Positions 27,714 through 53,370 of a stretch of 64,000 nucleotides of DNA are shown piece by piece; position 1 is the stretch's first letter, and every line of letters begins with the position of its first letter. The stretch comes from an uncultured Thermoleophilia bacterium (lineage in GTDB: Bacteria > Actinomycetota > Thermoleophilia > UBA2241): positions 266,779-330,778 of the forward strand of contig CAVTPJ010000002.1 of the NCBI GenBank assembly GCA_963736645.1, given 5' to 3'. The notes under the pieces are model-generated. The model did no database searches, was not told the DNA's origin, and saw nothing but the letters and a program-made list of their open reading frames with translations. The position numbers and the translations under genes are program-made.

Positions 27714-28649
27714 CTATCCGCAACGCGACCTCACGCGCTGCATCTCGGGGCAGCTCGCCAGCTTCGCCAGTGTCCTGGCCTCGATCTGGCGGACGTACTC
27801 CCCGGAGCAGCCCAGCTCGATGCCGATTTCCCGGAAGGTCCGCGGCCTGTCGTCCTGAAGGCCGTAGCGCAGGCTCAACACTCCTTGTTCGCGGGCGCTC
27901 AGCGCGGACAGGCCCTCGGACAACCACTCGCCCCGCAGGGCCTCATGGACCTGATCCTCGGTATCGGGTAGAGAACGATCCACGACGTAGTCCGCGAGAA
28001 CCGATTCGTCGTCGCAGCCGGCGGGAGAATCCAGGCTGACCGGCTCTCCGATCATTGCCGCGATGTCCCGCACCCTCTCCGCGGAGATGCCCAGAACGGC
28101 AGCAAGCTCCTCTGGCTTCGGCTCGCGAGCGAGGTCCTGACGGAGCCGGCGCTGCGCTCGTATCAGCTTGCCGATGGCCTCACCCGTGCGCGACGACAGT
28201 CGGACGGCGCGCCCCTGGTCGGACAACGCCCGGGTGACGCCGTGCCTGATCCACCACTTCGCGTACGTACTGAACCTGAACCCCCGACTAGGGTCGAACT
28301 TCTCAACGGCACGGATCAGCCCGAGATTGCCCTCCTGGATGAGATCGAGCAGCGCGAGCCCTCGATTGCAGTAGCGTCGCGCGATAGGCACTACCAGCCG
28401 CAGATTGGCTTGGACGAGCCGGTCCTTCGCGGCTGCGTCACCCTGCTCCACGAGCCGGGCCAGGGAGACCTCCTCCTCGGCGGTCAGCAGAGGCACCCTA
28501 CGTATCTCGCGCAGATACACGTCTACAAGATCACCCTCCGTGGCGTCGAGCTTCTCGTCTGCCCACATCTCCGTCACCATTGGAGCGTGCTCGGAGCCAT
28601 GCGAGACACGACTGCCCAAGGCCGGCTCGTATGCTCTCTTCGCGGTCAT
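27714..28649 (-). CDS. RpoD-like sigma-70 factor lacking region 1.1, with divergent regions 2.4 and 4.2
   Basis: [57 protein letters not shown]; ATGA overlap with arcC (alternative start 28580). Confidence 0.88.
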
Positions 28650-29677
28650 CTTGCCGCAGATGTCACCTGTCGACGGCGCCTTGGCCGTCCGGGGTCCTGA
28701 GAGACGTCCGGCACGATGTGCGTGCCGGCCTTCCCGGCCATCGCCGGGCCGACCTCGGTGAGGCTGGCGATCACGCTCTCGCCGCCGGCGTCGACGAAGC
28801 GCAGGCAGGCCTCGACCTTGGGGCCCATGGAGCCGGCCTTGAAGTGGCCCTCGGCGGCGTAGGCGCGCATCTGGCTGGCGGTGACGCGGGAGAGCGCCTC
28901 CTGCTCGGGGGTGCCGTAGTGCACGTAGGCCTGGGGCACGTCGGTGAGGATGAGCAGGGCGTCGGCGCCGAGCTCGGTGGCGAGCAGGGCGGCGGCGAGG
29001 TCCTTGTCGATCACCGCGTCGATGCCCGAGAGGGCGCCGCGGCTGCGCACCACCGGCACGCCGCCGCCGCCCGAGCAGACGACGAGGGCGCCGTCGGCGA
29101 CCAGGTCGCGCACCGCCTCGAGCTCGACGATCTCCTTGGGCTCGGGGCTGGGCACGACGCGGCGCCAGCCTCTGCCGGCGTCCTCGCGCATGGCGAGGCC
29201 CTCCTCGAGCATCATCTTCCGCGCCTCGGCCTCGGAGTAGAAGGGGCCGACCGGCTTGGAGGGGCTGGCGAAGGCCTTGTCCCGGGGGTCGACGGCGACC
29301 TGGGTGACCAGGGTCACCACCGGCACCTCGAGGCGGCGCTTGCGCAGGTGGTTGGCCAGCGTCTGCGCCGCCATGTAGCCGATCTGGCCCTGGCTCATCG
29401 CGCCGCAGACGTCCATCGGCATCGGCGCCACCGTCTTGGCGGCCAGCGCGTTCTGGATCAGCAGGTTGCCCACCTGGGGGCCGTTGCCGTGGGTGAGCAC
29501 CACGCGCCAGCCCTCCTCGACGAGGGCGACGATGCGACGCATGGCGCCGTCGACGTTGAACAGCTGCTCCTCGAAGGTGCCGACCTGGCCGGGCTGGAGG
29601 ATGGCGTTGCCGCCGAGGGCGACGACGACGGTGGGGATCTGTTGGCCTCGATTGTCTCTCGTTGATGACGTTGTCAT
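28646..29677 (-). CDS. arcC: Carbamate kinase
   Basis: [51 protein letters not shown]. Confidence 0.96.
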
Positions 29678-29972
29678 TGTTCCTCTGGTCGATGGGGAGA
29701 CCGGCGGGCGCGCAGCGCAGGGGGGATACCGCTGGCGCCCGCCGGCCTGTCAGCCGTCCGCAGGACGGGGGATTCCTAGCCGGCCATGCAGGCTGATGTC
29801 GACGAGGCCACACCCAGGCGCCACCAGACCACGATCGAGAGCAACGTCTGCCATCCATTCCTCCTGCTCAACAATCCAAGCCATGAGACCGGTGAGCGAG
29901 TCGGGCTCCTCAGGCGAGCGGGGCCGATGGGGTCGAAAGCTCGCGACCGACCGCAGCCCATGTTCGGGGTGA

Positions 29973-30049
29973 ATACTCTGAGATACCGACGGCCGTGAGA
30001 AGTGGCCGCGGGCACGTCCCAGGGGAGCGACCAATGTGCATTTGCACAT
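29973..30049 (-). promoter_or_regulatory. Promoter/operator module copy A upstream of arcC
   Basis: Palindrome ATGTGCA-NN-TGCACAT (30034-30049), 23-bp block 29996-30018, TTCTCA-N17-GAGTAT; aligns without gaps to 53500-53576. Confidence 0.7.
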
Positions 30050-30141: not shown

Positions 30142-31812
30142 CTAGCTGAGAGTGCGGCCAATCTCCGAGTGCGTGCCACTGGCGGCTGCAAGCAACTCTG
30201 CAGCCTTGAATGAGACGTAAAGCTCCACCATGTCGTCCATTCGGGACAGATCGAGATCAAGCACCGCTTCGATCCGAGCGAGTCTCTTGTACAGGGTGTT
30301 GCGATGCACGAACAGCTCTCGCGTCGTCTCCTGAACTGACGTACCGTTCTTGAAATACGCGCGCAGGGTCTCAACGAGTAAGGTGTGATGAACACGGTCA
30401 TGTTCAATCAACGGACGCACAAGCCGGTCGCTCATGGCCGCCAGTGCGTCCGGACTCTGCCCGCCGAGAAGCCGGAATTCGTTGTCGGCCTCGTCGAACA
30501 GGACGATGCTCTCGTTTACACCTGCCCCGTCGCGAGCAGACCGACAGGCCTCTTGAGCCTGCCTAAGGAGAGACGCCGGCCTAGATGGCCCAACCCAACC
30601 GCCTGAGACGCCGATACAGGTAGTCACCTCAGGGACTCCATCCTGTACCTGCCTCTGGGCCCTTGTGAACGCTTCGAATACGACCTCTCTGCCTGCCTCC
30701 TCAAAGACCGCCAGGACGATGACCTCAGCCTCCATCACGCATGAAATCGCTGAGACATGGGCTGAATGAAGACCCTCCTCTGCGGCGTCTGCGACGCGCC
30801 GTAGAATCGACTCTCGTTCCTGCGGTGATGAGGGAAACTTGCGCCCGGTGTGCTGTCGAGCCTCCACGCCCAGTACCGCCACCCGCCATGGGTCCCCCAG
30901 GTCGATGCCGGCAGCTTGGAGCTTGTCAGTCAGATCATGCGCACCCTCTTCTCGAGAGAGCAGATCCTGGAGGAGCGCCGAAGTCAGGTTCCTGCGAAAC
31001 CGCATCGCCTCACGCTCGGCCAGCAGACTGACCCCGATGAGACGCTGGGCGTGGGACAAGGTGACATCGATGAGGATTGAGGTCACCTGGGCTCGAGGGA
31101 CGACGGCGACGAGCACTCTCGTGAGCTCCCCGTGCACAACGACACGACGCACATAGATGCGCAGTTTCCCCGCCTCGATCACGCCCGTCGGGCCTCCGCT
31201 GAGATGCGCCCCCTCGACGGTGCTCCAGACGGAGCCTATATCGAACTCATCGCCTCGACTGGCTACCGCCAGAATCCCACCCGCGGGATCGAAGAGGATC
31301 ATCGAGAGGTCGAGCGTCTCTGATAGACGCAGGATGATCTCTGCTGCACCCTTCTCATCTACGAGCAGGTCAAGGAGCTGGCTCTGAACGGCGAGAGCGC
31401 GCCGTAACCAGTGCATGTCCATCGAGGACAGTGAGTGGTACACGTACGAGACGATATCTCGCAGTGCGAGCGACCTTGGGGCCTCGACGACGGGCAGGCC
31501 GAGCATCTTGGCGTGGTCGATGGCCTCGGGCGGTACATGGTCAAGATACTCACCAACAGCAACCACCAGCGCAGACGTCTTCCCCGAGATCGTGTCAAGG
31601 TAGCGGTTGGCCGCGTCCGTCGATTCGACCAGGTCCGCCCCATGAGTGATCAGAAGAGTGCCCTCTGTCATCCACTGCGTCGGATCCGAAAGGTCGGAGT
31701 GGTGTACGTGAACAATCACTCTGGAGAGCCCTAGATCTCCCGTGACAACGGTCAGGCCGAACTCAGCCTCGGCGACCAGCTCGCCTAAGGTCAGCTCCTC
31801 GCTGACGGTCAT
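30142..31812 (-). CDS. PucR/CdaR-family transcriptional regulator
   Basis: N-term HVHHSDLSDPTQWMTEGTLLITHG; C-term LVETLRAYF...LFVHRNTLYKRLARIE HTH. Confidence 0.92.
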   Translation of the reverse strand: MTVSEELTLGELVAEAEFGLTVVTGDLGLSRVIVHVHHSDLSDPTQWMTEGTLLITHGADLVESTDAANRYLDTISGKTSALVVAVGEYLDHVPPEAIDHAKMLGLPVVEAPRSLALRDIVSYVYHSLSSMDMHWLRRALAVQSQLLDLLVDEKGAAEIILRLSETLDLSMILFDPAGGILAVASRGDEFDIGSVWSTVEGAHLSGGPTGVIEAGKLRIYVRRVVVHGELTRVLVAVVPRAQVTSILIDVTLSHAQRLIGVSLLAEREAMRFRRNLTSALLQDLLSREEGAHDLTDKLQAAGIDLGDPWRVAVLGVEARQHTGRKFPSSPQERESILRRVADAAEEGLHSAHVSAISCVMEAEVIVLAVFEEAGREVVFEAFTRAQRQVQDGVPEVTTCIGVSGGWVGPSRPASLLRQAQEACRSARDGAGVNESIVLFDEADNEFRLLGGQSPDALAAMSDRLVRPLIEHDRVHHTLLVETLRAYFKNGTSVQETTRELFVHRNTLYKRLARIEAVLDLDLSRMDDMVELYVSFKAAELLAAASGTHSEIGRTLS

Positions 31813-32021
31813 GTTCTCTCCTGCCCGGCCTGTTGTGGTCGCCCGCGCAATTCCCGGCGTGCTGCCTTCAACACATCCGCCGCTGCCCCACGATGCTGAG
31901 CGTGATCCTTGCGAGCGACCGTGCTGTACGTGGTGCCCAAGGTGGGCACGACGCAAGTCTACAGGAACATGCTGCCGACACCGTTCGAGTCCCGCTCATC
32001 AGGCGAGTGCTCGGGACAACC

Positions 32022-33041
32022 TCACTCGGACTCGGCCGCCCCCACCCCTAGGATGCTCGTCAAGAGGGCCATGCGGATCACCACCCCGTATGCCACTGCC
32101 TCGAAGTAGAGCTGGCTGGGAGTCGCGTCGATGCGAAGATCCATTTCGCCGGCCCTGCGAGGCAACGTGTGCGTGACGTAGATCGTCCGGTCTTCGGTCT
32201 GCTGCACACGCACGAGCGTCTCATGGCGAACATAGTAGTTGTCCATGACCTTCTTGAACGCCTCGGCTTCGGACCCCTTGGGTGCGCTGCAGCCGGGCAG
32301 GTAGACCACGTCCACATCGGCAATCAGCTCGTTGAACGTGTCCTGGGTGAGATCGAACTCCTCGCGAAGCACACCTCCGGTGCTGGAGATGCGCTCGATC
32401 ACATCGCTAGGGGTGCGCCTCGACGCCTGGCTGGCCAGAGTCACGTCGGCGCCAAGGCGCGCAAGGCCCTGGGCCATCGAATGACCGGTGCGGGCCTCAA
32501 CGAGATCAGCGCTTGCCACGCAGACCTTCAACCCTTCAACTCTCCCAAAGGTCCGGTAGAGAGTGAACAGGTCGAGGAGGGCTTGAGTCGGATGCTCCCA
32601 GTGGCCCCATCCGGCGTTGATGACCGGACATTCCGAGCTCGGGACTGCCGCACGTGCTTCCTCCGAGTCGAAATGGCGCAGAACGGTCACGTCGGCGTAC
32701 TTCGACACGACCCGCAGCATGTCGGAAAGGCTCTCCTCTTTCGCCGCAGAGGACGTCACTAGGGGGCTGGCCTCCGTGAGGACGGAACCACCCAAGCGAA
32801 GCATCGCAGTCTCAAAGCTGAGCCTGGTGCGGGTGCTGGGCTGGAAGAACAGCGCCAGCAGGACTCTTCCGGAAAGCAGGTCGATCCGAGACCGGCTCCA
32901 TGGCTCGAGCAGGCGGCCCAGCTCGAATAGTCCACGTATCTGGTCGTCGGTGACATCATTGATCGAGTGCAATCCTCGACCCTCGAGGCCGATGGCCGCG
33001 ACGACCGAGCGGACTGCAGTCTCCGTATCACCCTTCTTCAT
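32022..33041 (-). CDS. ATCase-like carbamoyltransferase, candidate ureidoglycine carbamoyltransferase (allantoate phosphorolysis)
   Basis: FFQPSTRTRLSF, SSAAKEESLSD, HPTQALLD, HTLPR; the ATCase aspartate-binding R-x-Q motif is replaced by YLPGCSAP. Confidence 0.85.
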   Translation of the reverse strand: MKKGDTETAVRSVVAAIGLEGRGLHSINDVTDDQIRGLFELGRLLEPWSRSRIDLLSGRVLLALFFQPSTRTRLSFETAMLRLGGSVLTEASPLVTSSAAKEESLSDMLRVVSKYADVTVLRHFDSEEARAAVPSSECPVINAGWGHWEHPTQALLDLFTLYRTFGRVEGLKVCVASADLVEARTGHSMAQGLARLGADVTLASQASRRTPSDVIERISSTGGVLREEFDLTQDTFNELIADVDVVYLPGCSAPKGSEAEAFKKVMDNYYVRHETLVRVQQTEDRTIYVTHTLPRRAGEMDLRIDATPSQLYFEAVAYGVVIRMALLTSILGVGAAESE

Positions 33042-33073
33042 CTCGTTCCCTTCCACCAGCTGCCTGCGTGACC

Positions 33074-33862
33074 TTACGCCCCTGCGGCCGAGTCTGGAGC
33101 GGCGAAGAACCCGTCTCTGTTGATGTCCTTGTACAGAAGATACGAAGCCGGTGACGATCCGGTGGCCCAGAACGACTGGGGACAGTACGGCGCCATGTAG
33201 ATGTAGTCACCCTTGAACACTTGGTGGTATCGCCCGGCCAAGTAGTACACGCCCTGCCCGTCCAGCATCAGCAGGCCGTGTTCCTGATGGTGCATCTCGA
33301 TGATGCCAATCGACCCGCCCGGATCGGCCGTCAACACGTTCATCGCCATGTCGTACGACGGGTCTGCGGTTGGGAGGAGCTCCTGGTACGTGTAGGAGGC
33401 CGGAGCTTCGGGCTTGATGCTGGGAACGTCCGACTGATGCCCTGCGACGGGATTCGGCATCGGCACTCCACGGACCGGGTCATACCTGCGCTTCGTCCAA
33501 AGGGTCTGCGAAGGCTCCGCACCCGACGCCGAGAGTGCGAACTCCGCGCCCAACGGGAAGTAGCAGAAAGCTCCGGGGGCCATCGGGTGCGCGTCGCCCG
33601 CAGCCTCGACGACAGCTTCGCCGCGCACCTGGTAGACAAAATTCTCGAAGTCCCCGCCGAGCGGCTGCAGGCTGCGTCCGCGAGTCCCGAAGTCGAGCAG
33701 GTATTGGCCCAGACACGCGCCCGGGAACCTTGGTGTCGCCAGCGGGCGAGCTATCGTGTCCTCGAAGTAGGGAAGCCGGTTGTCGACGAGGTTCTCCGGA
33801 GTGATGAGCGCATACGAGTCGGTCACGATGCCCCGTGTTGAAGCCGCTGGCGTGGTTTCCAT
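33074..33862 (-). CDS. allE: (S)-ureidoglycine aminohydrolase (bicupin)
   Basis: TRG....YALITPEN, YDMAMNVL, EMHHQEHGLLML.GQGVY, GDYIYMAPYCPQ, YLLYKDINRD. Confidence 0.88.
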   Translation of the reverse strand: METTPAASTRGIVTDSYALITPENLVDNRLPYFEDTIARPLATPRFPGACLGQYLLDFGTRGRSLQPLGGDFENFVYQVRGEAVVEAAGDAHPMAPGAFCYFPLGAEFALSASGAEPSQTLWTKRRYDPVRGVPMPNPVAGHQSDVPSIKPEAPASYTYQELLPTADPSYDMAMNVLTADPGGSIGIIEMHHQEHGLLMLDGQGVYYLAGRYHQVFKGDYIYMAPYCPQSFWATGSSPASYLLYKDINRDGFFAAPDSAAGA

Positions 33863-33950
33863 GTGACGATCCTTTCGGTTGGGTTCGGACACCCCGTTCA
33901 GTCCTCGCCGAAACGACACTTCCGGCGCCGTGACAATCGCTCTGGCTGCT

Positions 33951-34478
33951 CTACTGTCCGCCTTGGTAGAACCTCACGCGTTCATGCAGGAGGGACGATT
34001 CGGGATGACCGGGCTTCTCCTGGGCCGGGTAGCCGACGGCGATGATCGCCTCAACGACCGTGTCCGTGTCCAGCCCCAGTACACCCACAACGTAGTCGTT
34101 CGCCGACTGACCTGCGTCGTGGTCACGCAGCCGGATCTGGACCCAGCAGCTGCCCAGCCCAAGGTCGGCGGCGGCCAGGTGGACGATGAGGGAGGCGATG
34201 GAAGCATCCTCCACCCAGACGTCCGAGCGCTTCGGATGCGCACAGATTACGATGGCCAGCGGGGCGGTCCCGATGAAGGATGCCCCGATCGCCTTCGCCT
34301 CTGCGAGCTGAAGCAGCTTCGACCGATCGGTGACGACGCAGAACTCCCAGGGACGCCTGTTGGACGCAGACGGTGATCGCAGCATCGCTTCGACGAGACT
34401 GTCAACCATCTCCCGTTCCACGGGTCGGTCTCGGAACTCGCGGATGCTCCGCCGCGATCGCAACAAGTCGATGAACAT
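33951..34478 (-). CDS. Nitroreductase-family flavoprotein
   Basis: RRSIREF, SPSASNRRPWEF, AAADLGLGSCWV, IAVGYP. Confidence 0.9.
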   Translation of the reverse strand: MFIDLLRSRRSIREFRDRPVEREMVDSLVEAMLRSPSASNRRPWEFCVVTDRSKLLQLAEAKAIGASFIGTAPLAIVICAHPKRSDVWVEDASIASLIVHLAAADLGLGSCWVQIRLRDHDAGQSANDYVVGVLGLDTDTVVEAIIAVGYPAQEKPGHPESSLLHERVRFYQGGQ

Positions 34479-36073: not shown

Positions 36074-36781
36074 TCATCTCATCCCGACCTCACCGGACTC
36101 CGGAAGCTTGAACGCGCGAGCCTTTGATGTCTTGAGCCCATTCACGATCAATCCGTGAAGAAGCGTCGCGGCGGCAGGCACAGCCTCCACCACCGGCACG
36201 CTCAGCCGCGATTCGAGATGTTCACGCAGATTCACCAAGCCTCCGCAACCGAGGCAGAGGACCTCCGCCTTGTCAAGCTCTATGGCCAGCCGTCCCTCGC
36301 GCTCAAGTGCAGCCGCTGCTGCTTCCGGATCGCGATGCGCCTCGAGCACGCTGAGGCCGGTCGCACGCACCGACGCACAGCGCGACTCGACGCCGTGAAG
36401 CCGCAGCCCATCTTGGATAGGCGGGACGCCACGTTCCAGTGTGGTGAGGACCGAAAACCGGCGCCCGAGGGTCATGGCGGTCAGGAAGCTGGATTCGCCA
36501 ATGCCGACGACAGGGGAGGACGTCAGTTCACGGGCTGCGAACAGACCTGGGTCGCCAAAGCAGCCGACGATCGCACCGTCGAAGGAGCCCGCGTGTGACG
36601 TCAAGGCGTCGACAACCGCCATCGCACCCAGTACGTCGTCACGGTAGCTGTCGATGGCAGCGACTCCACGCGTGGCAGTCACCCCCATCACCTCGGCATC
36701 GGGAATCACGCGTGCGGCAGCCGAGAGCATCTGGTCGGTCATGGCCACGGTCATGTTCGGATTGATCAGCAGGATTCGCAT
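36074..36781 (-). CDS. Hydantoin/allantoin racemase (Asp/Glu racemase family)
   Basis: LINPN, GCFGDPGL, VVGIGESS, LGCGG catalytic Cys motifs. Confidence 0.9.
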   Translation of the reverse strand: MRILLINPNMTVAMTDQMLSAAARVIPDAEVMGVTATRGVAAIDSYRDDVLGAMAVVDALTSHAGSFDGAIVGCFGDPGLFAARELTSSPVVGIGESSFLTAMTLGRRFSVLTTLERGVPPIQDGLRLHGVESRCASVRATGLSVLEAHRDPEAAAAALEREGRLAIELDKAEVLCLGCGGLVNLREHLESRLSVPVVEAVPAAATLLHGLIVNGLKTSKARAFKLPESGEVGMR

Positions 36782-37070
36782 CTCGACTCCTTGCGGCACG
36801 CCATTCGGACGCGTTCGTTGACGAGGCGACACTCCGCGCACTCAGATCGACCAGATGCGCGCAATCAGGCCCGAGCCGCCCGACGGTCGCAGCATCACGT
36901 GTCAGAAGGGACGCACAGCGACAAAGCGGTCCCCAGTGAGGACGAAAGCGCCGTCCATGAGGGTCCACTGTTGCCGACGTCCAGCGCGACAGTGCGACCG
37001 AACATCCGCCGGGCGAGCAGCCGCAAGCCCAAGCCACGGCGCATGGATGGCGGCATCAGTGCAGCGCCGC

Positions 37071-38905: not shown

Positions 38906-38906
38906 C

Positions 38907-40744: not shown

Positions 40745-40748
40745 CGTC

Positions 40749-45238: not shown

Positions 45239-47307
45239 TCACCGCGCCCGGACGACGGCACGCCGGGGCAGGCTTCGGCCTCCTGCGTGCCAAGCGCCGC
45301 AGCCGCTGCCTCGAGGCCCAGTCCCTCCAGACCGCTCCTCGTCGGTCGGCCGGTCGCCGGGTCCCAGCCCTCTAGCTCGTAGAAGATCGTCTTCCACGCC
45401 TCCACGCCGTCGCGGTCGAGGCGACGTGGCACGACGTTGCGGTACGACCACTCGCCGTGCTCGAACACGGGAGAGTAGTAGGCCGGGGGTCTCCCTGGCA
45501 CATGGGATACGCCCGTGGCGTCGCACTCATAGACGAACTCAGGAAAGACCTCTTGGTCGCGATGGCGTCCCTGAAGCGCCCAGATGGCGCGGTCGAGGTT
45601 CAAGATGCGCCGACCGATCTCCATGGTCCCCGCGAAGTCCATCGCCCGCCCGGTCACCGCCTCGAGAAACCTCATCTCGCCATCCGGGGTCAGCCCCCGG
45701 TTGTCTTTGCCATATGGATTCAGGAAGTCCGCGAAAGCGTTGTCGCAGAGGCCACAGGACTGCTTCCAGAAGAGGCTGTAGTGAAGCAGCCACGCCGTCG
45801 TCCTCGCCATGTGCACGGAGTAGAGATTGCCATCGGAGAAGTCCACCATCCTGGGATCGCAGTAGGGCAGGGTCTTCGAGGCGACGATCGCGGCGACTTG
45901 GCCGGCGGTCAGCAGGGGTTCGCGTCCGTGCATGATGTCGAGGGTAGGAAGCCAGTAGGCGGCCACGTTGAAGTCGTGGCAGTTCACGTCACGGCTGGTG
46001 ACGATCGATGCATAGCCCCAGTAGGCCTCGGTCCGCGGGTCGAAGTGAATGGGGTAGCCCCAGAACGGTGCAGCCAGATCGCCCGTGGCGAGGTCTGTCT
46101 CGAGCCGTTCCCAACGCTCCGCAGCCCTGGGCAGCCCTTCGGCCAGGTCATCGCCGATCCCTCGACGGTAGGCGATGCTGTGGAGCAACTCCTCGACGAA
46201 GGCCAGTTCGCCGATGTCCGCGAACGGCAGGTCCGTGCGGACCTCCGCCGCGACACCCGCGACGCCCTGCGCATGCAGCGAGACAAGGTAGTCGAGCATG
46301 CAGTCGGCTTCGAACGCGTTGATACCCAGCTCGTTCAAAAGGTCGGCAGCGCGCCCCGATATCTCCGTGACCGCACCGTGCCTCGCGTGATCCCAACGCT
46401 GGTAGTACTGCGCCGTCCTGCAGTGTGCGGAGCTTCCCACTCGGCTCGCCGTCTTGGGCTTGCAGTTGAGATGGCACCCCCAGCAGCCCGAGCTACGCCG
46501 TGCATCCTCCTCGTAGGGCGCCCATTGGCGGCCGGGATGGCCGCCGAAGTGCGAGGTGACATACTCAAGCCACTGATGAATGCGCGGAGCGTCGGCGTCG
46601 TAGGAGTAGTTTCGCTCCGCCCACAGGCGTGCCTCGATGAGCGCCGACGCATCGGCCACCTGAACGCCTTGTGTACCGAGCACACTGATCGCTTTCAATC
46701 TCTTGGAGCCCCAGACCCCTCCGAAGCCACCCTGTCCGAAGGCGCAGCCGGCGTCGTGCTGGATGGTGCCGATCCGGCTGAGGTTCTCGCCCGCCGGGCC
46801 AATAGTCAGGACGGCCGGGCGCTCTCCGTCCGGGGCGACGCCGACAGTGCCCATGATCGCCTTCTGCGCGTCCGAGGTGCGAAGACCCCACAGCCCGGTA
46901 GCGTCCATGAAACTGACCTCATCATCAACGATGCTGATCCACACCGGGGTCTCGGATGCCCCCTCCAGCACAACGGCGTCCCAGCCTGCGAACTTCAGCA
47001 TCGTCGAGAGACGCCCTCCGCAGTTGGACCGGCCGAACCATTCGTCTGGATAGGACTGGGCCTGGATCCCGACCATCTCCGCCCGCCCGGAACCAGGTAC
47101 GAGTGTCCCCGAGAAGAGCCCGGGTGCGATGACGAGAGTGTTGGCCGGGTCGAAGCAGCCGACCGTCTTGTCGGGCACCAGATCGAAGAACAGCGCCGCC
47201 CCCAAACCGTGCCCTCCCCACCACTCCTCGTACGCCCCCAGAGGGCAGGACTCGAAGGTCGCCGTCGTCAGGTCGACGCGCAGGATCTTCCCCGAGTGGC
47301 CGTACAC
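45232..47307 (-). CDS. Aldehyde:ferredoxin oxidoreductase family (W/Mo-bis-pterin)
   Basis: GKILRVDLT, GPAGENL, GFGGVWGSKRLKAI, CWGCHLNC and SCGLC Fe-S ligands, YELEGWD. Confidence 0.9.
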   Translation of the reverse strand: MYGHSGKILRVDLTTATFESCPLGAYEEWWGGHGLGAALFFDLVPDKTVGCFDPANTLVIAPGLFSGTLVPGSGRAEMVGIQAQSYPDEWFGRSNCGGRLSTMLKFAGWDAVVLEGASETPVWISIVDDEVSFMDATGLWGLRTSDAQKAIMGTVGVAPDGERPAVLTIGPAGENLSRIGTIQHDAGCAFGQGGFGGVWGSKRLKAISVLGTQGVQVADASALIEARLWAERNYSYDADAPRIHQWLEYVTSHFGGHPGRQWAPYEEDARRSSGCWGCHLNCKPKTASRVGSSAHCRTAQYYQRWDHARHGAVTEISGRAADLLNELGINAFEADCMLDYLVSLHAQGVAGVAAEVRTDLPFADIGELAFVEELLHSIAYRRGIGDDLAEGLPRAAERWERLETDLATGDLAAPFWGYPIHFDPRTEAYWGYASIVTSRDVNCHDFNVAAYWLPTLDIMHGREPLLTAGQVAAIVASKTLPYCDPRMVDFSDGNLYSVHMARTTAWLLHYSLFWKQSCGLCDNAFADFLNPYGKDNRGLTPDGEMRFLEAVTGRAMDFAGTMEIGRRILNLDRAIWALQGRHRDQEVFPEFVYECDATGVSHVPGRPPAYYSPVFEHGEWSYRNVVPRRLDRDGVEAWKTIFYELEGWDPATGRPTRSGLEGLGLEAAAAALGTQEAEACPGVPSSGRGDQ

Positions 47308-47308
47308 C

Positions 47309-47857
47309 TCAGGATCCCTCGTCCGTTGGCATGCCCAGCCGAGCCCAGCCTTCTCGCCGGCGATTCACCTCGTAGCCTGACGCGCCCAAGGGCGCAACGG
47401 ACGTGGAGTCGAGGGCGCGCACGGGACACACTTGCACGCAGGCGAGCTCGCCGTCGTCGTGACGCCAGTAAGGGGTGTCGCGGCACAGGTCGCACTTCGT
47501 CGACGTCCTTGACGCCGCGTCGAACCGGACGCGGCTGGGAGAGAAGTGGCAAGCCCCGATGCACTTCCGGCATCCTGTGCAGCTATCGCGATCGACGTAC
47601 CGCACGTTGAAGTGCTGCTGGTCGATCGCCAAGGCCCCCGCGGGACAGGCGGTGACGCAGGCGGCGTCCCTGCACTGGCGGCATGTGCCGAGAAGAATGT
47701 CCGTAGGAAACGAGCCGAACACGTCCTCTACGATGAGGATTCGTGCCGTGTGGAGCTGCGCCCGCCCCTCGTGCGCAAGCGCGCACATCAGCATGCAACT
47801 GCGGCAACCCGTGCACTTCCGTGGATCGCCCACGAGGTACAGGTGAGCCTCCTGCAT
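47309..47857 (-). CDS. 4Fe-4S dicluster electron-transfer subunit of the AOR
   Basis: CTGCRSCMLMC, CRQCRDAACVTACP, CTGCRKCIGAC, KCDLC, CVQVCP. Confidence 0.9.
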   Translation of the reverse strand: MQEAHLYLVGDPRKCTGCRSCMLMCALAHEGRAQLHTARILIVEDVFGSFPTDILLGTCRQCRDAACVTACPAGALAIDQQHFNVRYVDRDSCTGCRKCIGACHFSPSRVRFDAASRTSTKCDLCRDTPYWRHDDGELACVQVCPVRALDSTSVAPLGASGYEVNRRREGWARLGMPTDEGS

Positions 47858-48027
47858 GTCGCACTCGCCCTCGATGCCATCTGGACGGCCGACGTTCGCC
47901 ATCATGCAACCCCGTCTCCCGATGCCCCCAAGTGCCTGACTCACGATAGCAGCAGGGCATCACTTCGAACGGTCCGCAGAGCTGCCGCCGAACCGTCAGC
48001 CGCCCGCACCCGGCCGGCCCGCGGCGC

Positions 48028-49023
48028 TCACGCCTCGCCAAACAGACCGCGCCACTCCCGGCCCGTCTCTTCCATAAGGGAGCGGGCGCCCGAGCGCCGC
48101 ATGCGATGGAGTCGCGGCATGCCCAACTCCCACTCCTGCATCCAGCACGCCGCGAACTCGCCCCGAGCCGTTTCCTCGAAGATCTCGGCGATCTCGCCAC
48201 GATCGATCACGCGCGGTCCGCTGGTGCGGACCGCGAACTCGCAGGTGCGGCTGCTCTTGGACGAGATGTACTCCTCAATCCCGACCTCGTCCATGACATC
48301 GACGACCGACCTCAGCGAGCGAATCGCCTTCGCGTAGGCGAAATGCGGCGCACAGCCGTTGGCGACCAGCGTCTCGAAGGTAGCCCGCATGAGCGCTATC
48401 GTGCCGCCGTATAGCACCTGCTCTTCGAAGTTGTCGCCCTCCGTCTCCCACTCGAAGTCCACCGCAACCACCCCGACGCGAGTGCTGCCGCACGCCTTGG
48501 CGAGGCCGAGCACGGTCTCCCAGGCGCGACCCGTCACGTCCTGGTCAACGGCGACGGCCCCGTAGATGCCGGAGCCCTCCATGAACTTCTCGCGCACCAA
48601 GTGCCCGGGCGAGTTCGGCACGTAGAGCACGACGTCGACGTCGACCGGCGGTTTGATCGCCCCGTAGAGGACATTGAACCCACTGGCGAAGCTCAGCGTC
48701 TTGCCGGGGCTGAGCTGATCGTGAATCGCGTCACGGTAGACGGCCGGCTGGGCGGGGTCGGGAAGCAGGACGTGCACGATGTCCGCCGCTGCAGCCGCCT
48801 CAGCGATGCTCATGACCGGTAAGCCGTCAGCTTCCGCCTTGCCCCAATCCGAGAATCGCCGTCTGTCGCCGGCACCCACGATGACCGAGAGGCCGCTGTC
48901 ACGCATGCAAAGCGCCTGTGGGCCGCCTTGAACGCCGTAGCCGATCACCGCCACGACGCGGTCCTTGAGGGGCTCGAGGCTGATTTCGTGATCTCGGACG
49001 ACCTGATTCAATGTTATGTCCAT
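48028..49023 (-). CDS. Divergent ketol-acid reductoisomerase (KARI)-family oxidoreductase
   Basis: IGYGVQG, LLPDPAQ, SGFNVLYG, PNSPGHLVR, ETEGDNFEEQ, AEFA-like TCEFA. Confidence 0.85.
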   Translation of the reverse strand: MDITLNQVVRDHEISLEPLKDRVVAVIGYGVQGGPQALCMRDSGLSVIVGAGDRRRFSDWGKAEADGLPVMSIAEAAAAADIVHVLLPDPAQPAVYRDAIHDQLSPGKTLSFASGFNVLYGAIKPPVDVDVVLYVPNSPGHLVREKFMEGSGIYGAVAVDQDVTGRAWETVLGLAKACGSTRVGVVAVDFEWETEGDNFEEQVLYGGTIALMRATFETLVANGCAPHFAYAKAIRSLRSVVDVMDEVGIEEYISSKSSRTCEFAVRTSGPRVIDRGEIAEIFEETARGEFAACWMQEWELGMPRLHRMRRSGARSLMEETGREWRGLFGEA

Positions 49024-49059: not shown

Positions 49060-50256
49060 CTAGCGCTGCAGTTTGGCTGCCTGAGCTTCGGCCTTGATCT
49101 TGTCCAAGTCCGCGAAGCGCGAAAGCGGCAGACGCTCCAAGTACCAGGACTTCTCACCCGTCATCACAAACCGGGCCATGTCCCGACCGATCGTGGGCGC
49201 TTCGATCACGCCGTTTCCGCCGGCGCCGGCAGCCAGCATATAGCCCTCCACGGGCGTGTCGCCGAGGATGGGAAGGAAGTCGGCGGGCTCGGCGCGATAG
49301 CCGACCCACTCGTTGCTGATCGAGGATTCCAGCAGGCGCGGGTAGACCTCCATCAACTCTCCGGTGAGGAACTCCCAGAAGTACGCATCGGTGCCCCCGG
49401 TCATCGGCAGGTCATCGGGGTCCCAGATGCCGGCATGCGTCTCATCGCTGAGGTCCATGGTCATGTGCGCCTTGCAGATGAACACGTTGTCTTTGTCCTT
49501 GCGCGCGTAGAAACGCGGGTACTTGAGGACGGGGAATGGATACCCCAGACCCGCCGCAGGGGCCAAGATGAAGACCTCCGCCTTCGTATGCCACAGCGGG
49601 AGATCGAGCCCGACGTATCCCGCAGTGGTGCGCGCCCAAGGCCCGGAGGCATCGATGACGACATCGATGTCGAAGTGACCCTTCTCAGTCGTCACGCCCG
49701 CCACCTTGCCATCTCTCATGGTGACGTCTTCGACCTTGGTTCCGATCATGATCTTGGCTCCGGCCTCACGCGCGCGGCGCACGAGGCTGTTGGCCAGCAT
49801 CGTCGCGTCGAAGAAGCCGTCGTCAGGACACCAGCCAGCGCCGAGGACCCCCTCGAGATTCAGATCCGGGATGATCTCGTGGATCTTCGCGTGGTCGTGC
49901 CAGTACTCTGCGGTATAGCCGGACGCCACCGCCAAGTCGACCGCCCGCATGACGTAGGTCTCGTAGTCCTTGTATGGCGCGACGGTCAGCGTGCCGGTCC
50001 GCTCGAAGCCCGTGGAACCGGGCTCTTCCTTCTCCATGCCCGTGTAGAACCTGAAGCCGAAGAGCCGGACCGACCAGAACTCGTGCGCGACGGAATCGTC
50101 GATCAGGCAGAAGGTCGCGGCCGACTTGGCCGTCGTGCCTGAGCCGATGGTGTTCTTCTCAAAGACCGTGACATCCGCGTCAGGGTACTGGCTGAGGAAA
50201 TACGCGATAGATGCGCCGACGATGCCGCCGCCTACGACGCCGACTCTCTTCTTCAT
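49060..50256 (-). CDS. FAD-dependent amine/amino-acid oxidoreductase (DAO/sarcosine oxidase beta family)
   Basis: VVGGGIVGASIAY, GSGTTAKSA, DASGPWA, PILG, GGNGVIEAPTIG. Confidence 0.88.
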   Translation of the reverse strand: MKKRVGVVGGGIVGASIAYFLSQYPDADVTVFEKNTIGSGTTAKSAATFCLIDDSVAHEFWSVRLFGFRFYTGMEKEEPGSTGFERTGTLTVAPYKDYETYVMRAVDLAVASGYTAEYWHDHAKIHEIIPDLNLEGVLGAGWCPDDGFFDATMLANSLVRRAREAGAKIMIGTKVEDVTMRDGKVAGVTTEKGHFDIDVVIDASGPWARTTAGYVGLDLPLWHTKAEVFILAPAAGLGYPFPVLKYPRFYARKDKDNVFICKAHMTMDLSDETHAGIWDPDDLPMTGGTDAYFWEFLTGELMEVYPRLLESSISNEWVGYRAEPADFLPILGDTPVEGYMLAAGAGGNGVIEAPTIGRDMARFVMTGEKSWYLERLPLSRFADLDKIKAEAQAAKLQR

Positions 50257-50316
50257 TTCTCCTCCTCGTTGGCATCCGTCCACGCTTCTCTCGCCGATCC
50301 AGTGTGGCTTGCCGGA

Positions 50317-51288
50317 CTACAGCCAGACCGGATGCACGCCTCGGGTCTGGAGTCGGTCGATCAGCACGGGCAGGAACTCGTTCAGATCGGCCACGATTCC
50401 GATGTCCGCTTGCGTGAAGATCGCGGCGTCTTCGTCGTTGTTCACGGCCGCGACCACTCGGGAGTCGCGAATGCCGACGACGTGCTGGATGGCGCCAGAG
50501 ATGCCGACCGTTAGGCACACCTCGGGCTTCACCTTGATTCCCGACAGGCCCAGCCATTCGGGCAGCCAGTCCCGATCGGACGAGACGGGCCTGGAGCAAC
50601 CCACCTGGCCACCCAGAAGACTCGCGAGACGTCGGATCATCTCGAGATGCTCCATCTCCTTCACTCCTCGGCCGACGTCCACGACCGCTTTGGCTTCCTC
50701 CAGCCGGGCGCCGCTCGTGGTCTTGGCTCTCTCGCTCACCACAGATAGCTCCGGATCGCCAGCAGGCACCTGCAGTGTCTCGGCGCGCGCCAAGCGGCCC
50801 TTGCGCGACGTGGCCTCGAAAGACTTCTCGGCCACCGTCAGCACTGTAGCACCAAGCACGAAGCGATAGCTGGCCAAGCCTGCACCACCGTACAGAACGC
50901 AGCTGGCAGTAGTCTCGCCGCTGGCTGGATCGATCGTGACATCGACCGCCCAAGCGGCATACGCCGCGCCGGCGCGTTCCGCGACACGGGGAGCGACGTC
51001 CATACCCATCTTGCTGGCGCCAATGAGCACCAGGGTCGGCTGACACACACTCATCGCCGTGGCCAAGATGGCGGCCCATCTCGCCGAATCCAGGTGGTCC
51101 GCGTCGGTCGAGTACACAACGTCCGCGCCGCTGGAGGCATAGACCTCGAGCTCGGCCGCGGCGACGTCACCGCCGAGGCACAGAGAGACCTGGCCTCCCG
51201 TCGCGTCGGCGAGCTGACGCGCCTTTCCCAGCAACTCAAGCGCTACGACCGGACGATCACTCCAGACCAGAATCCCCGCCGCCATCAC
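50317..51288 (-). CDS. etfA: Electron transfer flavoprotein alpha subunit
   Basis: LEEAKAVVDVGRG, GCSRPV, VGISGAIQHVVGI, VNNDEDAAIF. Confidence 0.92.
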   Translation of the reverse strand: MMAAGILVWSDRPVVALELLGKARQLADATGGQVSLCLGGDVAAAELEVYASSGADVVYSTDADHLDSARWAAILATAMSVCQPTLVLIGASKMGMDVAPRVAERAGAAYAAWAVDVTIDPASGETTASCVLYGGAGLASYRFVLGATVLTVAEKSFEATSRKGRLARAETLQVPAGDPELSVVSERAKTTSGARLEEAKAVVDVGRGVKEMEHLEMIRRLASLLGGQVGCSRPVSSDRDWLPEWLGLSGIKVKPEVCLTVGISGAIQHVVGIRDSRVVAAVNNDEDAAIFTQADIGIVADLNEFLPVLIDRLQTRGVHPVWL

Positions 51289-52085
51289 GCCTCGCCTCTG
51301 TACGAGAGGACGTTCTCCTGCAGCAGCATGTCGATGAGAGCATCGGCCATCGCCGTGAGGTCCATGTCCTTCAGCACACGTCGCGTGCGGTCGACCACGA
51401 TTCCCGTCTCGCTGAGCACGGAGTACCCGGAGTGCACGGCGAGTGCCTCCTTTGTCAGGCCCAACTCCTCAAGACTCCATGAGTTGTTGGGCAGCTTCTG
51501 GGCCTTCATCGCCTGCAGGAGCGTGACGGGGCGAGGTACGAACGCTTCCTCGGCGACGCTGACGATCGCAGGGAGGGGAACACTCACTGTCTGGACGCCC
51601 TCCTCGAGATCCCGGTCGGCCGTCAAGACCGCGCCGTCGACGCCGATCTCGCGAGCATGGGACACGAACGGCAGTGCCAGACGCTCCGCCAGGCGCGGCC
51701 CTGTCTGATGGGAGTAGCCGTCGTCGCTCGCAAAGCCGCAGACGATGAGGTCGAAGGGGCCACGCTTACGGATCGCGGCCTCCAGCACGCGAACGGTCAC
51801 CGCCGCATCCGCGGCACCGTCGTACGGGTCCTCGATCACAGTCGCCTCGTCCGCACCGATGGCCAGCACGCTCTTGACCGCGCCACGCGCCGCAGGCGGT
51901 CCAAAGCACAGGATCTCCACCGACGCCTCGGACCCCTCCTTCAGGCGAACGGCTGCTTCGACGGCTCCCTTGTCGAGATCGCCGAATCGTGCAGGCACAC
52001 CAGCCATGCGCATTGCACGGCTCTCCGGATTCACCCGAATCTCTGCCGCGTCGATTGAGTACTTCACCAGGGCCAGTATCTTCAA
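51285..52085 (-). CDS. etfB: Electron transfer flavoprotein beta subunit
   Basis: LVKYSID, DKGAVEAAVRLKE, AIGADEA, CGFASDDG; TTG start after GGAGGA. Confidence 0.9.
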   Translation of the reverse strand: MKILALVKYSIDAAEIRVNPESRAMRMAGVPARFGDLDKGAVEAAVRLKEGSEASVEILCFGPPAARGAVKSVLAIGADEATVIEDPYDGAADAAVTVRVLEAAIRKRGPFDLIVCGFASDDGYSHQTGPRLAERLALPFVSHAREIGVDGAVLTADRDLEEGVQTVSVPLPAIVSVAEEAFVPRPVTLLQAMKAQKLPNNSWSLEELGLTKEALAVHSGYSVLSETGIVVDRTRRVLKDMDLTAMADALIDMLLQENVLSYRGEA

Positions 52086-52314
52086 GAGTACTCCTCCACG
52101 GGTCGATGCCTCCAAAGACAGCGCTCGCTGGCTACTCTGCCTCCTGTCGCGCCTTCGCCGAGCTTGGGCACGCCGATCGCATCTCGCTGTCGTTGGGAGA
52201 TTGGGGAAGGCAGAGCGCGCCTCTCGGCGCGCCGCGAACTGATCCTGGCCCTGCGGATGGTCGCCGGGGGAGTCTGGGAGCGGCCATCGCAGGGCCGATG
52301 TTCGTCCACCTGCC

Positions 52315-53370
52315 TTACGGCACGATGCAGGCCATCACACCTTTCTGCGCGTGAAGACGGTTCTCGGCCTCGTCGTAGCACGGCGTCCCCCACTTCGGGT
52401 CGTCGAGGACCGCGTCGCTAACCTCGTAGCCTCGCTCGCAGGGAAGGCAGTGCATGTAGAAGGCAGAGTCCTTGGCCAGGCGCATCCGCTCCTCGTCCGC
52501 GATCCAACCGCGGTACTTGTCGAACAACTTGGCCATGTCCTCATGCCTCGGCTCCGCGCTGAACGGCGGCAGCATATCGAGGCAGACGTAGTTCTTGGCA
52601 TAGACGACGTCGGCGGACTCGCAGGCGTCCTCCATGCTGTCAACCTCCGCGAATGTGCCACCATTCTGCTCCACGTTGGCAATGATGGCGTCCCTGACGT
52701 CAGGGTCGATGCGAAGCTCGGGTGGATGGGCGAAGACGATGTTAGGACCGAAGTAGCTGGCCGCGTACATGAAGTCGTGGTGCGGAGCGATCGGCTTCTT
52801 GGTGCTTGGCGAGTAGGCCCAGGAAACGGCCAGCTTGCGCCCGCGAAGATCCCTCCCCAGGTGCTCCCACAGAGTCATTGCGTCGGCCATGCCCTGGTTG
52901 GGATGGTACTTGTTGTCCTCCATGTTGATCACGGGGACCTCGGCGTACTTGGCGAACTCCTGGATGATCTTCAACGACTTGTCGTAGTCCCAGTCGACAG
53001 CCCCGCCGAGGATACGGACTGCAATCGCGTCGCCCATTCTGGACAGCACGCGAGCGACATCGGCGATGCGCTCGGACTGATACGCCACATCCTCGCCCTC
53101 CAGTGTAGGCAACCGCATCGAAGACGGCTCCAAGAAGTGTGCGTGCCCGCCCAACTGAAAGATGCCGGCCTCAAAGCTGTTGCGGGTGCGCAAGGAGGGG
53201 TTGAAGAACAGCATCAGCAGCGTTCGGACCGGAAGGATGTCTTGATGGGTCCGACGCATGGCCATGTCGGCCTTGAGTCGCAGGCCGACCTCGAGCATGG
53301 TCTCGATCTCCCGTCGGCTGAAATCACGCAGAGTGATGAAGTCGCGGCCTTTGAGTCCCTCTGTGATCAA
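52315..53370 (-). CDS. YgeW/N-acylornithine-type ('knotted') carbamoyltransferase of unknown substrate
   Basis: FFNPSLRTR, HPNQGMAD, SWAYSPS..KP loop, HCLP, EAENRLH; TTG start with AAGGAG RBS. Confidence 0.87.
   Translation of the reverse strand: MITEGLKGRDFITLRDFSRREIETMLEVGLRLKADMAMRRTHQDILPVRTLLMLFFNPSLRTRNSFEAGIFQLGGHAHFLEPSSMRLPTLEGEDVAYQSERIADVARVLSRMGDAIAVRILGGAVDWDYDKSLKIIQEFAKYAEVPVINMEDNKYHPNQGMADAMTLWEHLGRDLRGRKLAVSWAYSPSTKKPIAPHHDFMYAASYFGPNIVFAHPPELRIDPDVRDAIIANVEQNGGTFAEVDSMEDACESADVVYAKNYVCLDMLPPFSAEPRHEDMAKLFDKYRGWIADEERMRLAKDSAFYMHCLPCERGYEVSDAVLDDPKWGTPCYDEAENRLHAQKGVMACIVP

Follow-up and report, generated by a model that had tools for sequence, protein, structure and literature searches.

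Known allantoin pathways and the locus under study

Catabolic transcarbamylases coupled to a carbamate kinase (CK) represent one of the few routes by which anaerobes obtain ATP from nitrogen-rich compounds. A 2018 review recognizes as established only the ornithine, putrescine and ureidoglycine enzymes, and describes the gene of the oxamate transcarbamylase as unknown. The ureidoglycine carbamoyltransferase (UGTCase) of Rubrobacter xylanophilus, Rxyl_2847, has been shown to convert allantoate and phosphate to ureidoglycine and carbamoyl phosphate (Barba et al. 2013, PMC4016543). Its gene is located between those of an allantoinase and a CK, in a cluster that also encodes a uricase and urate-pathway proteins, and an asparaginase has been proposed for the next step (PMC4016543). 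In Escherichia coli, the oxamate transcarbamylase is the three-subunit AllFGH (FdrA/YlbE/YlbF-type), which acts together with the kinase AllK and whose fold is reported to be unrelated to that of classical transcarbamylases (E. coli papers). The locus described here, at positions 28646-53370 of a window of 64,000 nucleotides from an uncultured Thermoleophilia bacterium (contig CAVTPJ010000002.1, positions 266,779 to 330,778, assembly GCA_963736645.1), carries genes for two transcarbamylases, TC1 and TC2, for a CK and for an allantoinase. Coordinates given without a contig or locus name are those of the window, that is, the whole stretch of DNA that was analyzed.

The locus probably encodes a catabolic system that is under PucR control and acts on allantoin and related hydantoins, and in which ureido groups would be converted to carbamoyl phosphate and, by CK, used to form ATP. 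The first half of this route, the UGTCase plus CK, has been known since 2013. In the literature surveyed, no description was found of an operon with two transcarbamylases, of TC2, of its partner resembling ketol-acid reductoisomerase (KARI), of a carbamoyltransferase for N-carbamoylglycine or for beta-alanine, or of a transcarbamylase step in pyrimidine catabolism. On allantoin use in Anaerolineae, nothing was found beyond Barba 2013, the E. coli papers and those on YgeW.

TC1 belongs to the ureidoglycine carbamoyltransferase type

TC1 exhibits the motifs STRT, HPTQ, HTLP and LPGCSAPK, and its nearest relatives, at 77% identity, are found in metagenome-assembled genomes (MAGs) of Anaerolineaceae. 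A phylum-wide search revealed 66% identity over 326 amino acids with a transcarbamylase of genome G056, which carries the same motifs. In both proteins G-C-S occupies the place of the aspartate-binding R229-x-Q231 of aspartate transcarbamylase (ATCase). The G056 genes are arranged as allantoinase, unknown gene, transcarbamylase and CK, which is the Rxyl_2845-2848 layout. In view of this layout match, G056 is probably R. xylanophilus DSM 9941 and its transcarbamylase Rxyl_2847. An allantoinase and a CK accompany TC1, while an allantoate amidohydrolase was not found in the assembly. We infer that TC1 is a UGTCase orthologue, expected to form ureidoglycine and carbamoyl phosphate from allantoate and phosphate.

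Two other assignments of TC1 were rejected. It does not qualify as PyrB, given its score under the TIGR00670 cut-off, the replacement of R-x-Q and the presence of an ATCase-like paralogue beside a dihydroorotase-like gene at 92.8-95.0 kb of contig C2. Nor does membership of "pseudo-ATCase group 2" (PMC4016543, Table 1) hold, as the G056 gene at the Rxyl_2847 position carries exactly the TC1 motifs. To note, "pseudo-ATCase 1" is defined in this table by HPLA and AIA/AIS/SIA, and the gene at the Rxyl_2847 position (L096/L103) displays HTLP and GCS, the "group 2" pattern; the row labels may have been swapped, or the groups may be otherwise defined.

The TC2 family

TC2 possesses the two domains of the classical transcarbamylase fold (PF02729 and PF00185) and the motifs SLRT, HPNQ and HCLP. 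Its scores are 254.7 bits for N-acetylornithine transcarbamylase (AOTCase; cut-off 288), 199.6 for ornithine transcarbamylase (OTCase; 280.85), 181 for putrescine transcarbamylase (PTCase; 500) and 104-115 for YgeW (453-500). The best match in the PDB is the AOTCase 3kzc, with 205 bits, and homologues with 72-87% identity are counted in hundreds. As judged from these comparisons, TC2 represents a strongly conserved and undescribed family that falls, within the superfamily, on the AOTCase/OTCase side. When species-representative genomes were scanned, 80 loci were retrieved, the nearest in Actinomycetota MAGs (Acidimicrobiia, Thermoleophilia) and the remaining mostly in Chloroflexota, with some in Armatimonadota, Spirochaetota and Deltaproteobacteria. 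Public databases annotate relatives of TC1 and TC2 as "aspartate carbamoyltransferase" and "N-acetylornithine / ornithine carbamoyltransferase".

A sister clade of TC2, with 48-57% identity, is encoded together with CK in reductive-pyrimidine clusters (L067, L069, L073, L076, L079, L082, L086, L088 and L089), and six congeners of the window's genome have this pyrimidine-type clade. The cluster of L088, a Thermoleophilia MAG, comprises a dihydropyrimidinase, a dihydropyrimidine dehydrogenase, a class-III aminotransferase, an aldehyde dehydrogenase, PucR and CK, the aminotransferase being of the kind expected for beta-alanine. Because its neighbors are reductive-pyrimidine genes and a CK, the sister enzyme probably cleaves an N-carbamoyl amino acid, N-carbamoyl-beta-alanine. 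In another Thermoleophilia MAG (L090, 10001-13070), an 84% orthologue of TC2 is found beside a pyrimidine-type TC2-like gene, 72% identical to the L088 enzyme, and a gene of the dimethylarginine dimethylaminohydrolase/arginine deiminase (DDAH/ADI) fold. The vicinity contains a CK, a DUF1989 gene and a polysaccharide-deacetylase gene, possibly PuuE-like, without TC1.

Conservation of the gene cluster

Neighbors were counted within 10 kb of TC2 in 32 non-redundant loci whose TC2 shows at least 60% identity and for which the sequence includes both flanks. AllE and a DAO-family dehydrogenase are each found in 26 of them, and TC1 and the electron-transfer flavoprotein (ETF) subunits EtfAB in 25. 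AllB, CK and the KARI-like gene follow in 21 loci each, FixC in 20, FixX in 19, the racemase in 13 and GcvH in 10. In the Chloroflexota-type arrangement the order is TC1 - (CK-like) - CK - AllB - AllE - KARI - TC2 - FixC - FixX - EtfB - EtfA - DAO - racemase ... GcvT - GcvH - GcvP. A Thermoleophilia-type locus, L007, reads racemase - EamA - AllB - TC1 - AllE - PucR - TC2 - GcvH - GcvPA - GcvPB - CK - glyoxylate-reductase-like dehydrogenase.

Four genes of the window are rare or absent within this range: the deaminase and the binding protein (0/32 each), the aldehyde:ferredoxin oxidoreductase (AOR) and the hydantoinase (1/32 each). They could have been taken for window-specific additions. This is contradicted by the contig of a second Thermoleophilia MAG (L061/L113), where all four lie 5-25 kb from TC2, and by L112, a metagenome contig of 7.5 kb with the order EtfAB - TC2 | GntR - binding protein - deaminase. 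L061/L113 carries nearly the complete gene set of the window, with identities of 72% for TC1, 85% for TC2, 76% for DAO, 75% for KARI, 69% for the binding protein, 71-74% for the deaminase, 66-77% for OppB/C, about 70% for the racemase, 68-71% for the hydantoinase, 75-88% for AOR and 68% for its Fe-S subunit. In L113 (ENA ERZ25039459, contig_33337), frameshifts split TC2, the deaminase, the Opp genes, the racemase, the hydantoinase, AOR and the Fe-S subunit, which could reflect long-read assembly errors or decay of the cluster. A minimal arrangement is found in two deltaproteobacterial loci, L056 and L057: a TIGR02033-positive hydantoinase adjoins TC2 and CK, and DAO/ETF and AOR/Fe-S are present, without TC1, AllE and KARI. 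GcvH belongs to this minimal cluster in L057, not in L056. Three loci other than the window, belonging to two lineages (L056, L057 and L113), thus combine AOR with TC2. The grouping of these genes is not due to chance, because dozens of other genomes show it as well, and in L113 and L112 it extends to accessory genes; such co-occurrence is the check that an earlier sequence-only reading of this DNA had named.

Redox partners and the link to glycine

The KARI-like gene scores above the cut-off of TIGR00465 (268.6 bits against 226) and under that of NF004017 (305 bits against 336). Compared with PDB 5e4r, the first D/E pair of the Mg site (ETEGDNFEEQ) is kept while the second is replaced, YFE becoming YAK and NEL becoming RSL. 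In KARI these residues are the metal ligands, and both acidic pairs are needed for alkyl migration. The gene is located directly upstream of TC2 in most Chloroflexota loci. An assignment as IlvC was rejected in view of the lost second acidic pair, of the recurrent ureide-operon context and of an ordinary paralogue, 39% identical, on contig C1, which is likely ilvC.

The best PDB matches of the DAO-family protein are 1y56_B, dimethylglycine dehydrogenase and glycine oxidases, and its solved relatives also include sarcosine oxidases. Across the loci, the KARI-like enzyme, DAO/ETF and the 2-hydroxyacid dehydrogenase of L007 replace one another. The canonical ureidoglycolate dehydrogenase family (Ldh_2/AllD) is missing in 12 of 20 operon-bearing genomes and never adjoins the operon. 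A link to glycine is provided by the glycine-cleavage genes: L007 and L049 share the order TC2 - GcvH - GcvPA - GcvPB - CK, and GcvP is encoded within 12 kb of TC2 in 8 of the 20 genomes, from three phyla. Elsewhere in the genome of the window are genes for GcvH/PA/PB and FixCX-EtfBA, and the L007 dehydrogenase has a 64% orthologue there.

A predicted pathway from allantoin

These observations are compatible with the following scheme. Uptake would be ensured by the Opp-type importer, and the adenosine-deaminase-like enzyme might perhaps pre-process the imported compound. The racemase and the allantoinase, the latter assigned above its family cut-off, would convert allantoin to allantoate. TC1 would then release ureidoglycine and a first carbamoyl phosphate, by analogy with the Rubrobacter enzyme, and AllE, as its family assignment suggests, would convert ureidoglycine to ureidoglycolate and NH3. 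A redox step by the KARI-fold enzyme and/or the DAO/ETF pair would follow, after which TC2 would phosphorolyze the remaining C2 ureido acid. The sequence-only reading had likewise proposed ring opening followed by phosphorolysis by catabolic transcarbamylases and by CK, a logic with which the evidence is consistent. It had also named allantoin as one probable substrate, which the analysis supports.

That reading had, in addition, assumed a second substrate unrelated to the first. The conserved order AllE - KARI-like - TC2 and the proximity of TC1 argue instead for one and the same allantoin molecule. Because this order is conserved and TC1 lies within 10 kb in 25/32 loci, TC2 would remove the second ureido group of allantoin, and the two transcarbamylases most likely act in sequence. 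The hydantoinase can still offer a second entry, because it directly adjoins TC2 in the two deltaproteobacterial loci.

As for the compound cleaved by TC2, N-carbamoylglycine is the favored candidate. The gene context suggests, with chances close to even, that ureidoglycolate is reduced by way of an N-carbamoyl-imine to N-carbamoylglycine, which TC2 would split into glycine and carbamoyl phosphate. D-hydantoinase would supply the same intermediate from hydantoin. Glycine would enter the glycine-cleavage system, or be oxidized by DAO/ETF to glyoxylate and further by AOR/Fe-S; the recurrence of AOR with TC2 fits such an aldehyde product. The net yield would be up to 2 ATP per allantoin, without release of urea, and with glycine cleavage the route would be redox-neutral. 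N-carbamoylglycine alone unifies the adjacency of the glycine-cleavage genes, the DAO-family protein, the hydantoinase-TC2 adjacency and the sister clade.

In its most complete form, which is put forward tentatively and with somewhat less than even confidence, this proposal would make TC2 the first glycine-forming catabolic transcarbamylase and the KARI-fold enzyme an N-carbamoyl-imine / ureidoglycolate reductase. Together with the UGTCase they would constitute a previously unknown, redox-balanced branch of purine catabolism, from allantoin to glycine and two carbamoyl phosphates, hence 2 ATP, widespread in Chloroflexota and several other phyla, with the sister enzyme acting likewise on N-carbamoyl-beta-alanine.

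Several points weigh against this proposal. No enzyme of the KARI fold or of the DAO family is known to reduce ureidoglycolate or its imine to N-carbamoylglycine. A reduction to glycine followed by re-oxidation by DAO looks wasteful, which renders the direction and role of DAO ambiguous. The nearby GcvP is the sole copy in four genomes, so that its adjacency may partly reflect housekeeping synteny. The classical anaerobic route passes through oxalurate and oxamate, and TC2 could be an oxamate transcarbamylase of the transcarbamylase fold. The pathway leaves the roles of the deaminase, the nitroreductase and the importer unexplained. Finally, the CK core, nearly identical to a second copy in the genome, could in principle be an artefact of MAG assembly or polishing.

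Competing readings of the second transcarbamylase

Oxalurate is the main rival substrate, though an unlikely one. Ureidoglycolate would be oxidized to oxalurate by the KARI-fold enzyme, by DAO/ETF or, in L007, by the 2-hydroxyacid dehydrogenase, and from oxalurate and phosphate TC2 would form oxamate and carbamoyl phosphate. The succession ureidoglycine, ureidoglycolate, oxalurate, oxamate matches the order AllE - KARI - TC2; the lack of Ldh_2/AllD here and in most operon-bearing genomes calls for another dehydrogenase; oxidation steps are typically served by NAD(P)- and ETF-linked dehydrogenases that can replace one another; and a parabanate-inducible oxamate transcarbamylase activity is known in streptococci, with no gene of the transcarbamylase fold assigned to it. 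However, oxalurate explains neither the glycine-cleavage genes inserted between TC2 and CK nor the glycine-oxidase-like DAO that follows TC2 where TC1, AllE and KARI are missing. It gives AOR no aldehyde to act on and does not account for the hydantoinase directly beside TC2. Moreover, the sister clade resides in pyrimidine clusters, where the substrate would be an N-carbamoyl amino acid rather than an acylurea, and the sole identified oxamate transcarbamylase, AllFGH, is of unrelated fold.

A more direct chemistry, which seems improbable, would have TC2 split ureidoglycolate itself into carbamoyl phosphate and alpha-hydroxyglycine, giving glycine imine, or glyoxylate and NH3; the KARI-fold enzyme and DAO/ETF would interconvert these with glycine, and AOR would oxidize glyoxylate. 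The links to glycine, glycine cleavage, DAO and AOR are accounted for as well as by N-carbamoylglycine, and by the general thermodynamics of transcarbamylases an unstable leaving group would pull an unfavorable phosphorolysis forward. Such a reaction nevertheless has no known precedent, KARI precedes TC2 in the gene order, and the neighbor of TC2 in L056/L057 is a hydantoinase, an enzyme whose usual products are N-carbamoyl amino acids.

The scheme put forward in the sequence-only reading started from an independent substrate: creatinine or N-methylhydantoin would yield N-carbamoylsarcosine, TC2 would release sarcosine, DAO/ETF would form formaldehyde, and AOR would consume it. DAO indeed resembles sarcosine and dimethylglycine oxidoreductases, dimethylglycine dehydrogenase is ETF-linked, and the hydantoinase, the deaminase, the importer and AOR stand together in the window and in L113. 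No specific support for creatinine, N-methylhydantoin or sarcosine has emerged, and the scheme now appears very improbable: TC2 is found in allantoin operons at 25/32 loci, where it immediately follows AllE and the KARI-like gene, glycine-cleavage genes are its recurrent companions, and the deaminase is of the adenosine-deaminase family and not of the cytosine/creatinine-deaminase type. An M24 protein beside DAO in L005 was considered as a creatinase and set aside, since its weak matches are ectoine-hydrolase-like.

The idea that both transcarbamylases are ordinary biosynthetic ATCase/OTCase, clustered by coincidence, would have spoken against the sequence-only reading and can practically be dismissed: it has the public names of their relatives in its favor, but both score under the curated cut-offs, TC1 lacks R-x-Q, the genome has separate paralogues of ATCase-like and OTCase-like type at other sites (one beside the dihydroorotase-like gene), synteny with allantoin genes and CK is kept across phyla, and among the sampled genomes of the genus TC2 proper occurs only here, at a site that is empty in 7 congeners.

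The carbamate kinase copy and a shared regulatory element

The core of the CK gene (28705-29632) is 99.78% identical at the DNA level to C2:453569-454496 of the host genome (L001, 9540-10706), whereas both gene ends differ. The host copy belongs to an operon with the order PTCase/OTCase-like carbamoyltransferase - antiporter - CK - agmatine deiminase. The composition of the CK gene is host-like, with a G+C content at third codon positions (GC3) of 0.93. The CK core is considered to have arisen very recently from the host agmatine-deiminase kinase, either by duplication or by gene conversion, a MAG assembly artefact being less likely.

Upstream of CK and upstream of the TC2 operon lies a shared element of about 85 nt, composed of the palindrome TGTGCAAATGCACA and GACGTGCCCNCGGCCACTTCTCA. 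Copy A aligns with positions 53490-53545 of copy B over 56 nt at 79% identity, and in the 3.2-Mb genome the 23-mer has just two occurrences. A search before the other island operons and genome-wide returned no copies beyond these two. In L007 the same element precedes TC2, downstream of PucR. Because the only other copy of the element upstream of CK precedes TC2, the island CK is predicted to be co-regulated with the TC2 operon, which meets the doubt that its composition had raised. The kinase of the host agmatine-deiminase operon would thus have been recruited and set behind a copy of the TC2 promoter/operator.

Many Chloroflexota operons contain a second, divergent CK-like gene of 341-356 amino acids between TC1 and the ordinary CK (TIGR00746 203 bits, cut-off 358), as in L004 (8406-9476) and L094 (3250-4275).

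An island between ftsW and murG

The locus is inserted between ftsW and murG, as established by alignment to relatives with an empty site. Family scans identify murF-mraY-murD-ftsW on one side and murG-murC on the other, ftsW and murG being contiguous in 7 genomes of the same genus. An alignment with relative L105 covers window positions 55574-54029 and 24762-22149 and thereby fixes the boundaries of the insertion. A 16-bp direct repeat is present in exactly two copies in the window, one at each boundary, and in a single copy at the empty site of the relatives. The FtsW reading frame now terminates inside island DNA. No integrase or transposase was recognized among those island genes that were scanned.

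Two parts of the island differ in composition: from 24762 to about 29900 its GC is host-like, and beyond, up to 54028, lies the ureide part, with lower GC. The GC content is 0.61-0.66 inside against about 0.70-0.73 outside, and GC3 is about 0.78 against about 0.9. Of the 41 genomes sampled from the genus, this one alone has TC2 proper, and a TC1-type gene is found in 5 of 401 sampled genomes of the phylum. The segment 28646-53370 is, on this comparative ground, assigned for the most part to the lower-GC ureide part of a horizontally acquired island.

The host-like-GC part includes a gene for a sigma-70-type factor (27714-28646), whose start overlaps the CK stop. In 25242-28646 are also found split transketolase-like genes, with the N domain at 26610-27626 and the pyrimidine-binding domain at 25751-26533, which display 76.8% DNA identity to host C9:204032-206400.

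Gene content

Open reading frames (ORFs) were called with the guidance of GC3 and then scanned against NCBIfam and Pfam. The genes of loci L057 and L088 were identified through ORF calling and Pfam as well. All genes are on the minus strand except that of D-hydantoinase. Every gene listed in the sequence-only reading was found as an intact ORF at the coordinates it had given, and its list of absences (AllC, AllA, AllD, urease, uricase) extends beyond the window: a search of the whole 3.2-Mb assembly, an 85%-complete MAG, revealed neither AllC nor Ldh_2/AllD, and no ureidoglycolate lyase, urease or uricase either. Two molybdenum-cofactor (MoCo) dehydrogenases are encoded on other contigs. The racemase is probably an allantoin racemase. 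The deaminase belongs to a small clade with 69-77% identity, two members of which are found beside TC2 clusters (L112 and L113). Two further transcarbamylase paralogues of the host genome, at C13:59195-65762 (L002) and C5:180439-181363 (L003), may be parts of further ureide modules; one of them adjoins a PucR paralogue and a family-5 binding protein.

Table 1. Features of the island and of its ureide gene cluster, in window coordinates.
Feature	Coordinates	Strand	Evidence and remarks
16-bp direct repeat GAAGGAGTCACATTGC, right copy	24746-24761	-	murG ribosome-binding site and start region
Insertion between ftsW and murG, 29.3 kb	24762-54028		Alignment to relatives with empty site
CK	28646-29677	-	TIGR00746 413.3 bits, above cut-off 358.25
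Regulatory element, copy A: palindrome TGTGCAAATGCACA + GACGTGCCCGCGGCCACTTCTCA	29963-30048	-	Upstream of CK
PucR-family transcriptional regulator	30142-31956	-	PF07905, PF17853, PF13556; 66%-identical orthologue at same position in L007
TC1, ATCase-like	32022-33056	-	TIGR00670 222.9 bits, under cut-off 236.95
AllE, (S)-ureidoglycine aminohydrolase	33074-33919	-	TIGR03214 237.4 bits, above cut-off 200
Nitroreductase-family flavoprotein	33951-34478	-	PF00881; 54% homologue only in L057
Allantoinase AllB	34599-35957	-	TIGR03178 504.6 bits, above cut-off 357.85
Asp/Glu/hydantoin-family racemase	36074-36841	-	PF01177 171 bits
Opp/Dpp-type ABC importer, 2 ATPases and 2 permeases	37071-40855	-	Permease (OppB/C) orthologues in L113; order kept
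Adenosine-deaminase-family deaminase	40749-42005	-	Within transporter operon; PF00962; under TIGR01430 cut-off
Family-5 substrate-binding protein	41885-43666	-	66-69% orthologues adjoining deaminase in L112 and L113
D-hydantoinase / dihydropyrimidinase	43820-45238	+	TIGR02033 522.3 bits, above cut-off 393.25; orthologue in L113
AOR, tungsten-type	45232-47307	-	PF02730, PF01314; orthologues in L113 and (54-57%) in L056/L057
4Fe-4S electron-transfer subunit of AOR	47309-47944	-	Accompanies AOR in L056, L057 and L113
Divergent KARI-fold NAD(P)-dependent oxidoreductase	48028-49023	-	PF07991, PF01450
DAO-family FAD amine dehydrogenase	49060-50283	-	PF01266
EtfA	50317-51288	-	ETF family; usually with FixC/FixX
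EtfB	51285-52115	-	ETF family; usually with FixC/FixX
TC2, AOTCase/OTCase-like carbamoyltransferase	52315-53370	-	Under every curated cut-off
Regulatory element, copy B	53490-53575	-	Upstream of TC2 operon
16-bp direct repeat GAAGGAGTCACATTGC, left copy	54029-54044	-	3' end of ftsW

Implications

If both ureido groups are captured, the ATP yield would be double that of the UGTCase route of 2013, and the absence of urea release would suit this organism and others for which a urease is not found. In Anaerolineae and further uncultured lineages, where the operon is common, its key genes go under the names pyrB, argF and ilvC in databases, and a purine-fermentation pathway is therefore overlooked when the metabolism of these groups is reconstructed. 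TC2 would either fill a long-standing gap, as an oxamate transcarbamylase of the transcarbamylase fold, or define a new activity, that of a glycine carbamoyltransferase. For reductive pyrimidine degradation, an equivalent route with ATP formation is suggested by the sister clade. The island itself suggests a pathway completed in place, by copying the host CK gene and placing it under an island promoter.

Comparison with known systems

The R. xylanophilus route is similar in its 66%-identical transcarbamylase with the same motifs, in the allantoinase and CK of its cluster, in the lack of an allantoate amidohydrolase and in the ATP gained from the first ureido group. It differs in that the 17-kb stretch examined there is devoid of TC2, AllE, the KARI-like gene, DAO and ETF; to this route the window adds another transcarbamylase and a whole second module. 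The anaerobic pathway of E. coli (AllB, AllC, AllE, AllD, AllFGH, AllK) shares the allantoinase, AllE and a catabolic CK, and its last ureido group likewise ends as carbamoyl phosphate and ATP. However, AllC and AllD are missing here, and allantoate would be cleaved phosphorolytically rather than hydrolytically. In addition, TC2 is of the classical transcarbamylase fold, as opposed to the unrelated AllFGH, and the C2 product may be glycine and not oxamate.

The YgeW/YqeA pathway of urate degradation via 2,8-dioxopurine (bioRxiv 10.1101/2025.04.24.650524) also combines a hydantoinase-type ring opening, a transcarbamylase of the knotted branch, CK and ATP formation. Its substrate is 2,3-diureidopropanoate, and its partners SsnA, YgfK, YgeX and YgeY are not present here. 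Among solved structures, the Xanthomonas AOTCase ArgF' (PDB 3kzc/3kzk) is the closest to TC2, with the motifs SxRT, HPxQ, YAK and HCLP in common. In contrast to this enzyme of arginine biosynthesis, TC2 stays under the AOTCase cut-off and is found in catabolic ureide operons with CK. The arginine and agmatine deiminase pathways follow the same principle of a catabolic transcarbamylase and CK yielding substrate-level ATP, and the island CK appears to be copied from the host agmatine-deiminase kinase. Here, however, the substrates would be purine-derived ureides, with two transcarbamylases in one pathway.

The sequence-only reading had called the whole a candidate new system. The TC1 half was already known, in view of the 66% identity to the G056 transcarbamylase and of the layout of the Rxyl_2845-2848 type, and the novelty lies in the TC2 module. 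The energy-conserving principle and the first enzyme are known, whereas the second module, formed by TC2, the KARI-like enzyme and DAO/ETF, together with the glycine-cleavage system or AOR, is conserved, widespread and undescribed.

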